DNA from: Candidatus Bathyarchaeia archaeon
GTDB taxonomy: Archaea; Thermoproteota; Bathyarchaeia; Bathyarchaeales; Bathycorpusculaceae
Assembly: GCA_049970895.1 (NCBI GenBank)
Contig: JBMFMB010000001.1
Location: 135,544 to 199,543, forward strand
Reading direction: 5' to 3'
DNA: 64,000 nt
In this document: positions 10,384 through 11,089 of the stretch, piece after piece
Position numbering within the stretch: position 1 is the first letter of the stretch
How the letters are laid out: the number at the start of each line of letters is the position of its first letter
Notes under the pieces: generated by a model
The model's input: the letters and a program-made list of their open reading frames with translations, nothing else
What the model was told of the DNA's origin: nothing
Databases searched by the model: none
Program-made: the position numbers and the translations under genes

Positions 10384-11089
10384 TTAAAGTTTGTGCCCGT
10401 AACGCCCAGTTAAAGGTACAAAAGCCACACCGCCCAGATTCTCCCGGCTAATTTTCCCATCGGCACTTTTCACAACTTTTATCAGGCTTTGGAATAGGTG
10501 TATGCTTCCAACTGGAATTAGCATTATTCCGCCATTTTTTAGCTGTTCAATTAGTGGTTTTGGTATGTCTGGAGCCGCCGCCGTGACAACTATTCTGTCG
10601 TATGGGGCTTTTTCTGGATAACCCATGGAGCCGTCATCGCATATTATTGTGACACGGTCGCCGTACCCAGCTTTCATTATGTTTCTTCTAGCGAACTCTG
10701 CCAATCCCTCAATTATTTCGATGGTGTAGACGTGTCCCCATTCGCTTCTTGGGGCTTCGCTTGGCGCCACTATTTCAGCCATTGTAGCGGCATGCCATCC
10801 TGAGCCTGCTCCCACTTCAAGGACTTTGTGGCCCACTTCCAATTGGAGGGCTTCATTCATTATTGCAACCATGTTTCGCCTAGCCGAGGCCAAAGCCAAG
10901 GCTATGTGGCGCTGAAACTGTCTGCCCAAAACCAATTGGAAGGGGTGTGTCAACGGCGCTGTAGGATTGCATGTTTTCTGGCAGAAACTTTGTACGTGGC
11001 ACTTTTCGCATCGCATTAATCACTTTTGGGGAGCGAAGTATGCCCTCCTTTATTAGGTTCTCAATTAATCGTTCCCAGTCTCTCTCCAA
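10384..11089 (-). CDS. pcm: protein-L-isoaspartate O-methyltransferase, interrupted by a 31-nt insert (exons 11089-10906 and 10874-10384)
   Basis: N-part [21 protein letters not shown]-part [25 protein letters not shown]; joined exons give 675 nt in frame; TTG start at 11089 inferred. Confidence 0.92.
10875..10905 (-). other. putative bulge-helix-bulge mRNA intron (31 nt)
   Basis: CGCC/GGCG 4-bp helix flanked by ACA and AAA 3-nt bulges and a UAGCC/GGCUA inner stem; cleavage after nt 2 of each bulge gives CCA CAC ATG (P-H-M). Confidence 0.8.

Follow-up and report, generated by a model that had tools for sequence, protein, structure and literature searches.

The pcm locus and its reading frames

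The window, a 64,000-nt stretch of DNA from an archaeon of the class Bathyarchaeia, carried on its minus strand a gene for protein-L-isoaspartate O-methyltransferase (pcm), identified by a match to the Pfam PCMT profile. The gene was flanked by glmS (11156-12985, minus) on one side and by a convergent TrpB-like gene (9063-10376, plus) on the other. A segment of 31 nt at 10905-10875 interrupted the codons of the motif G-Q-T-V-S-A-P-H-M. In the list of open reading frames, the upstream ORF (11125..10880, 81 aa) was ended by a UAG at 10882-10880, within the insert, where a preliminary description of this DNA had placed an in-frame stop. The second frame was open from 11016, and its Met-initial part extended from 10872 down to 10384.

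Both pieces matched the PCMT profile. The 73 residues ending in ..TVSAP corresponded to profile positions 4-59 (E 2.1e-13) and the 162 residues starting with MVAIM.. to positions 61-208 (E 2.9e-46). As the matches ended at 59 and resumed at 61, the gap between the two pieces was exactly one residue. The features of the locus, including a candidate bulge-helix-bulge (BHB) intron, were as follows.

10906..11125, minus strand: pcm exon 1, from ATG 11125 (alternative TTG 11089) to the middle base (C) of the first bulge; coding for the residues to ..GFGQTVSAP plus base one of the His codon
10905..10875, minus strand: candidate 31-nt BHB intron (AUAGCC..GGCGAA), with the in-frame UAG
10384..10874, minus strand: pcm exon 2, beginning with AC, the rest of the His codon; 162 aa from Met (MVAIMNEAL..), stop at 10386-10384
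10911-10908, minus strand: central 4-bp helix, 5' strand CGCC, exonic, pairing with GGCG 10880-10877
10880-10877, minus strand: central helix, 3' strand GGCG, intronic
10907-10905, minus strand: first 3-nt bulge ACA, predicted 5' cut between 10906 and 10905
10876-10874, minus strand: second 3-nt bulge AAA, predicted 3' cut between 10875 and 10874
10881..10904, minus strand: inner helix UAGCC 10904-10900 / GGCUA 10885-10881, closing an apical GGC/GCC hairpin

In BHB motifs, cleavage occurs between the second and third bulge residues, as given in the available text of PMC2738675. When this rule was applied, removal of the 31 nt gave GCG CCA CAC AUG (A-P-H-M), and the gap was filled with a single His between profile positions 59 and 61. 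The excision and the resulting P-H-M (CCA CAC AUG) were those given in the preliminary description. The restored protein was 236 aa long with the ATG 11125 start and 224 aa long with the TTG 11089 start; the length of 224 aa reported earlier therefore holds for the TTG start and not for the ATG start. The start was ambiguous within 11087-11125, with GGTG lying before the TTG, and N-terminal alignments of relatives started anywhere from residue 1 to residue 21. The closest other pcm-like match in the genome had 35% identity over part of the query only, and no further pcm orthologue was found there.

Structure of the insert

The minus-strand RNA at the insert read CGCC-ACA-UAGCC-UU-GGC-UUUG-GCC-UC-GGCUA-GGCG-AAA-C. 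The exonic CGCC straddled the Ala and Pro codons, with two bases at the end of the former and two at the start of the latter. Past the second bulge, the outer helix was a single pair, G10912-C10873. Checked against the minus-strand sequence, the anatomy claimed earlier (a split motif, a 4-bp CGCC/GGCG helix, two 3-nt bulges and a weak outer helix) was right to the base.

The outer helix fell short of that in the canonical hBHBh' motif. Of 74 distinct sequences from the organism and its relatives, 60 had an outer helix of 1 bp and 14 had one of 2 bp, and one constant outer pair, G-C, was found in 104 of 104 distinct sequences. With an outer helix of only 1-2 bp, the pcm motif falls in the relaxed class. 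Such relaxed motifs were reportedly named HBh' by Marck and Grosjean in 2003.

Folding of the single pcm insert gave -26.1 kcal/mol with a z of -1.52, which was not significant (16 of 200 shuffles folded as well), and folding energy of the single sequence was therefore rejected as a criterion. The minimum-energy fold paired AAAC with GUUU and left the second bulge closed, which counts against the intron reading. An Rfam search of 10300-11200 returned no matches at E up to 1.

Chance expectation and genome-wide scans

Strict BHB-like motifs numbered 12,875 in the 1.34-Mb genome when 107 intron lengths and both strands were scanned, about 4.5e-5 per position and length. A strict motif landing by chance at exactly the boundaries that restore the frame is unlikely, at roughly 1e-4. 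Since BHB-like motifs are frequent and the single-sequence fold is weak, the weight of the case rests on the comparison of relatives.

Of the 12,875 strict motifs, 673 fused ORFs and 122 passed a coding-score filter, among them 29 with introns of 60 nt or less. Within these 29, only pcm was convincing; most of the other strict candidates inspected were rejected as gene junctions, with a Shine-Dalgarno-like sequence and a start codon inside. A scan for the relaxed motif gave 72,964 matches and 453 candidates. When the relaxed candidates were ranked by constrained-fold energy, pcm came second (-19.1 kcal/mol), and the cbf5 gene of the same genome was recovered too (-12.8 kcal/mol). The scan for further BHB-split genes, which the preliminary description had proposed, thus yielded cbf5 besides pcm and no others that were convincing; it was crude and cannot establish the absence of further coding-sequence introns. 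A 69-nt BHB-like candidate at C18:21815-21883 (-16.9 kcal/mol) was dropped, the surrounding ORFs being of odd composition. Excision of this candidate would join two open frames; it has no Shine-Dalgarno-like start.

No meaningful second copy turned up when the intron with its flanking sequence was compared with the genome by short-word BLAST (best E 0.011 over 16 nt), and the pcm intron did not resemble the tRNA introns called by ARAGORN. A search of metagenome contigs with the 18-nt motif of the spliced junction gave 11 matches, with no near-identical spliced sequence among them. Four of the 11 were pcm genes, all intron-less and from distant organisms (47-67% identity in the C-terminal part), and the best nucleotide match of these contigs to the exons of this organism was 86.7% over 113 nt. 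Being all distant and intron-less, these matches are uninformative on splicing in this organism.

Inserts at the same site in relatives

Loci of pcm were collected from 40 relatives, from 80 records titled Candidatus Bathyarchaeota, Bathyarchaeia or Bathyarchaeales together with one titled uncultured archaeon, and from a class-wide sample (20 loci) and a phylum-wide sample (19 loci). An insert at exactly the same site was present in 123 of 149 analysable loci (104 distinct sequences) and absent from 26; these counts are not frequencies, as the loci are non-independent, some genomes being included twice and the last 39 loci having been chosen for split-looking or stop-holding matches. The alignment of pcm across Bathyarchaeia that had been proposed at the outset thus gave inserts at the same site, and their BHB pairs covaried (see below).

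The insert-bearing loci belonged to Bathyarchaeia and to four families outside the class but within the same phylum. In the class-wide sample, a PCM match was found in 137 of 151 genomes; the intron was seen directly in 21 of them and the same split pattern in 11 more. Outside the class, 14 genomes of the four families had the split pcm pattern, and the intron was found in 12 of 12 inspected. Seven other genomes had stops in the PCM match and no insert at the pcm site. In one genus of the window's own family, this query gave no pcm match in any of five genomes with a completeness of 95-100%; the gene may have been lost in this lineage.

The inserts varied from 21 to 57 nt across the 104 distinct sequences, with a length modulo 3 of 1 in 46, 2 in 40 and 0 in 18; all 18 inserts of the last class held an in-frame stop. 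These lengths bear on translational recoding, in which the ribosome would shift frame or, in the manner of phage T4 gene 60, hop across the insert. A stable hairpin lies just past the interruption, as such a mechanism might have it, but no single frameshift works for inserts of all three length classes. Moreover, no in-frame match of take-off and landing codons was found, a hop from CAU to the downstream CAU lands out of frame, and the conservation falls on features of an endonuclease substrate. We regard recoding as highly improbable.

Read as an intron, the insert had a constant architecture. All four central pairs and both 3-nt bulges were present in 104 of 104 distinct inserts, and the same cleavage rule gave A-P-H-M with the His codon CAC in every one of them. 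The inner helix had 3-12 contiguous pairs in 102 inserts and only 1-2 in the other two. The first bulge was ACA in 91, UCU in 7, ACU in 4 and UCA in 2; the second was AAA in 69, AGA in 18, AUA in 8, ACA in 6, UUA in 2 and UAA in 1. Two bulge bases were invariant in all 104 sequences, namely C at the second base of the first bulge and A at the third base of the second bulge.

Covariation and codon constraint in the exon

In alignment A1, 96.6% of 1137 cells were paired and 151 cells were changed on both sides, a result that 0 of 500 shuffles reached. The central helix was 100% paired. When the 3' partner was slid by 1-3 columns, pairing fell to 17-42%. All six counted inner-helix pairs had changed on both sides among relatives, with 93.7% of cells paired; the first inner-helix pair was U-A in 72, C-G in 30 and G-C in 2.

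Covariation extended across the boundary between exon and intron. The second central pair, in which the third Ala-codon base faces a base of the intron, was G-C in 91, A-U in 11 and G-U in 2 and was never unpaired, and a compensatory change from CGCC/GGCG to CACC/GGUG was observed. All 104 intron-bearing sequences had GCG or GCA for Ala and a Pro codon ending in A or U; the intron-less loci also used the Ala codon GCU and the Pro codons CCC and CCG. Exon codon choice was constrained only where the intron was present.

These data were weighed against a naturally split pcm, in which an N-terminal part of 73-81 aa and a C-terminal part of 162 aa would be translated separately and assemble, the insert being an mRNA-processing or translational-coupling element. 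Such a gene would explain that the 3' exon always starts, just past the insert, at the AUG for the conserved Met of SAPHM, and that the upstream frame is closed by a stop or a frameshift in every insert. It leaves unexplained the 4-bp helix with exact 3-nt bulges in 104 of 104 sequences and the compensatory changes between exon and insert, and the invariant bulge C and A are what the spliced His codon CAC requires. In addition, the active-site His is absent from both fragments, and the variable inserts show no conserved ribosome-binding sequence. A split gene is accordingly judged improbable, if somewhat less so than recoding.

Intron-less alleles, gene tree and selection

The 26 intron-less loci read CCN CAC/CAU AUG, which is the predicted spliced sequence. 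An intron-less orthologue aligned without gaps to the solved PIMT 1jg1 through a 13-residue motif that matches the spliced junction. We take this motif of 1jg1 to be part of the substrate-binding site.

In a gene tree of 130 distinct proteins, the intron-less loci were nested among the intron-bearing ones. The tree needed 10 state changes, and well-supported branches made at least 4 of these unavoidable; it was a quick tree with an uncertain root, and cannot separate intron gain from loss. The pcm intron is probably old and would have been precisely lost several times.

Strong purifying selection acted on both exons among intron-bearing lineages: dN/dS ranged from 0.07 to 0.20 in exon 1 and from 0.02 to 0.08 in exon 2, and synonymous sites were almost saturated. 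A decaying pseudogene or an assembly error would also leave an interrupted gene, one that would be annotated as broken. The interruption, however, recurs across many independent assemblies, at one and the same site in 123 loci, both exons are under the selection just described, and this is the only pcm orthologue found in the genome. The probability left for decay or artefact is close to negligible.

Splicing enzymes encoded in the genome

Two genes of the EndA family (PF01974), of 185 and 187 aa, were found elsewhere in the genome, in the regions C13:21251-21805 and C14:7322-7882. The first EndA had full-length similarity to crenarchaeal catalytic subunits (2cv8, E 1.4e-44; 3p1z_B; 2zyz_B), carried the N-terminal GxYGKPLGIxKPK stretch and kept the His of GLEHAPY. 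PDB entries 3p1z and 3ajv differ at this residue (His versus Ala), which is consistent with its being the catalytic His. The second EndA was 31% identical to the first and had Thr at the position of this His; with this replacement it would be the structural partner. A gene for RtcB was also present, truncated by the contig end. The genome encodes a two-subunit EndA of the crenarchaeal type, predicted to be able to cut relaxed motifs, together with RtcB. Such an enzyme fits the near-absent outer helix (1-2 bp) of the pcm intron. According to the available text of PMC5829648, only EndA of the (alpha-beta)2 and epsilon2 types cuts non-canonical introns.

ARAGORN called 45 tRNAs in the genome, 15 of them with introns, mostly of 13-37 nt; none lay within the window. 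Some of the long tRNA introns look over-called, and in size the tRNA introns are similar to the introns of pcm and cbf5.

Proposed splicing of pcm

The 31 nt are very probably a genuine relaxed BHB intron in the pcm coding sequence, cut at both bulges, with the exons joined by RtcB and the restored frame translated. Cleavage, ligation and translation of the spliced form are what we infer from comparing sequences. In the proposed route, the pre-mRNA would fold so that the exonic CGCC pairs with the intronic GGCG, and the two-subunit splicing endonuclease would cut each 3-nt bulge between its second and third bases. RtcB would then ligate the exons and probably circularise the intron. The resulting mRNA would read GCG CCA CAC AUG and allow translation of a complete PCM of 224-236 aa, while unspliced RNA would give the 81-aa fragment only.

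The preliminary description had suggested coding-sequence splicing beyond cbf5. The conservation of the site, the variable insert lengths, the covariation, the exact intron-less alleles, the purifying selection and the presence of the enzymes together argue strongly for it. Its further suggestion, that expression of protein repair is tied to endonuclease activity, is speculation.

Comparison with known systems

A pre-mRNA intron is known in cbf5 of Desulfurococcales and Sulfolobales (Watanabe 2002, Yoshinari 2006 and Yokobori 2009, cited in PMC2738675, PMC7714728 and PMC12397907). Like the pcm insert, the crenarchaeal cbf5 intron is short, has a relaxed BHB within coding sequence, follows the same cleavage rule and interrupts codons of a catalytic motif; it also occurs in lineages with a two-subunit EndA and has a patchy distribution with secondary losses. 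The two differ in that cbf5 encodes an RNA-modifying enzyme, whereas pcm encodes a protein-repair methyltransferase and bears its intron in Bathyarchaeia and the four families of the same phylum. Splicing of cbf5 has been demonstrated by cDNA and in vitro cleavage, and that of pcm is predicted from the alignment of relatives.

In Haloferax volcanii, HVO_1309 has a BHB intron in its 5' UTR, for which circRNA-seq and in vitro cleavage provide support (PMC7714728, PMC10485636). It resembles pcm as an mRNA substrate of the archaeal splicing endonuclease, but its intron lies in an untranslated leader, its removal restores no reading frame, and the enzyme is of the alpha2 type. The non-canonical introns of archaeal pre-tRNAs share motif geometry, size range and enzymes with the pcm intron; the pcm intron, however, lies in an mRNA, and sense codons make up the exonic strand of its central helix.

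The splicing of HAC1/XBP1 mRNA depends on the endonuclease Ire1 and a stem-loop motif and is regulated by stress. In outline it is like the route proposed for pcm, as a protein endonuclease cuts a structured mRNA, ligation is of the RtcB type and the reading frame changes; it is unlike pcm in its endonuclease, its stem-loop motif and its stress regulation. This unconventional mRNA splicing is known from eukaryotes (PMC8718801).

In the available text of papers from 2020-2025 (PMC7714728, PMC10485636, PMC12397907), cbf5 is named as the only archaeal coding-sequence case and HVO_1309 as the 5' UTR case, and the 2023 review among them states, in its available part, that more such introns "remain to be discovered" (PMC10485636). 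Our literature search, with subscription journals and supplements outside its scope, found no paper linking pcm or isoaspartyl methyltransferase with a BHB intron. The pcm gene would be only the second archaeal gene known with an intron for the tRNA-splicing enzymes inside its coding sequence. A second case in an unrelated gene would mean that endonuclease-dependent mRNA splicing is not a curiosity of one gene, and the inserts of 21-57 nt would offer a natural series of substrates for defining the needs of a broad-specificity enzyme.

A cbf5 intron in the same genome

The cbf5 gene of this genome had a 39-nt BHB intron (contig C23:12252-12290), arranged as GHGGTL, 39 nt, (D)PNVTGVLPV. Its helix was CCCU/GGGG, its bulges were AGA and AAA, and its inner helix was AGCC/GGCU. 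The boundary fell between the first and second bases of the catalytic Asp codon after GHGGTL, and the crenarchaeal cbf5 intron is placed at the same Asp-codon position (PMC2738675). Among 30 cbf5 loci of relatives, 27 had an intron of 18-41 nt at that site and three had none; the central helix covaried (CCCU/GGGG, CUCU/AGAG, CCUU/AAGG). The cbf5 intron had been reported only in Desulfurococcales and Sulfolobales, as far as the available text of PMC2738675 goes, and these loci would extend its range to Bathyarchaeia.

The cbf5 BHB intron serves as a positive control for the pcm intron in the same genome. The pcm insert itself is not a member of the cbf5 intron family, its host gene being different. 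In many MAGs, automatic annotation would list pcm and cbf5 genes of this sort wrongly as pseudogenes, and estimates of completeness and metabolic inferences would be affected. The pcm intron would also be a second data point, again in codons of a catalytic site, on the origin and loss of such introns.

The pcm and cbf5 introns were alike beyond what the geometry demands: the inner helix began with (U)AGCC../..GGCU(A), the first bulge had the form A-N-A, and the second, AAA, had a C after it. This likeness could reflect enzyme preference or common origin. Taken further, both introns may be relics of one formerly mobile BHB class that was inserted into codons of catalytic motifs; their retention would make active PCM dependent on EndA and RtcB, an archaeal counterpart of regulated splicing of the HAC1/XBP1 type that couples protein repair with the condition of the RNA-repair machinery. 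We regard this joint reading as unlikely.

In one relative of the same order (C66:1837-4209), the cbf5 match was split, its two parts lying some 1.5 kb from each other in one open frame of 873 aa, which suggests that this cbf5 holds a large in-frame insertion, possibly an intein.
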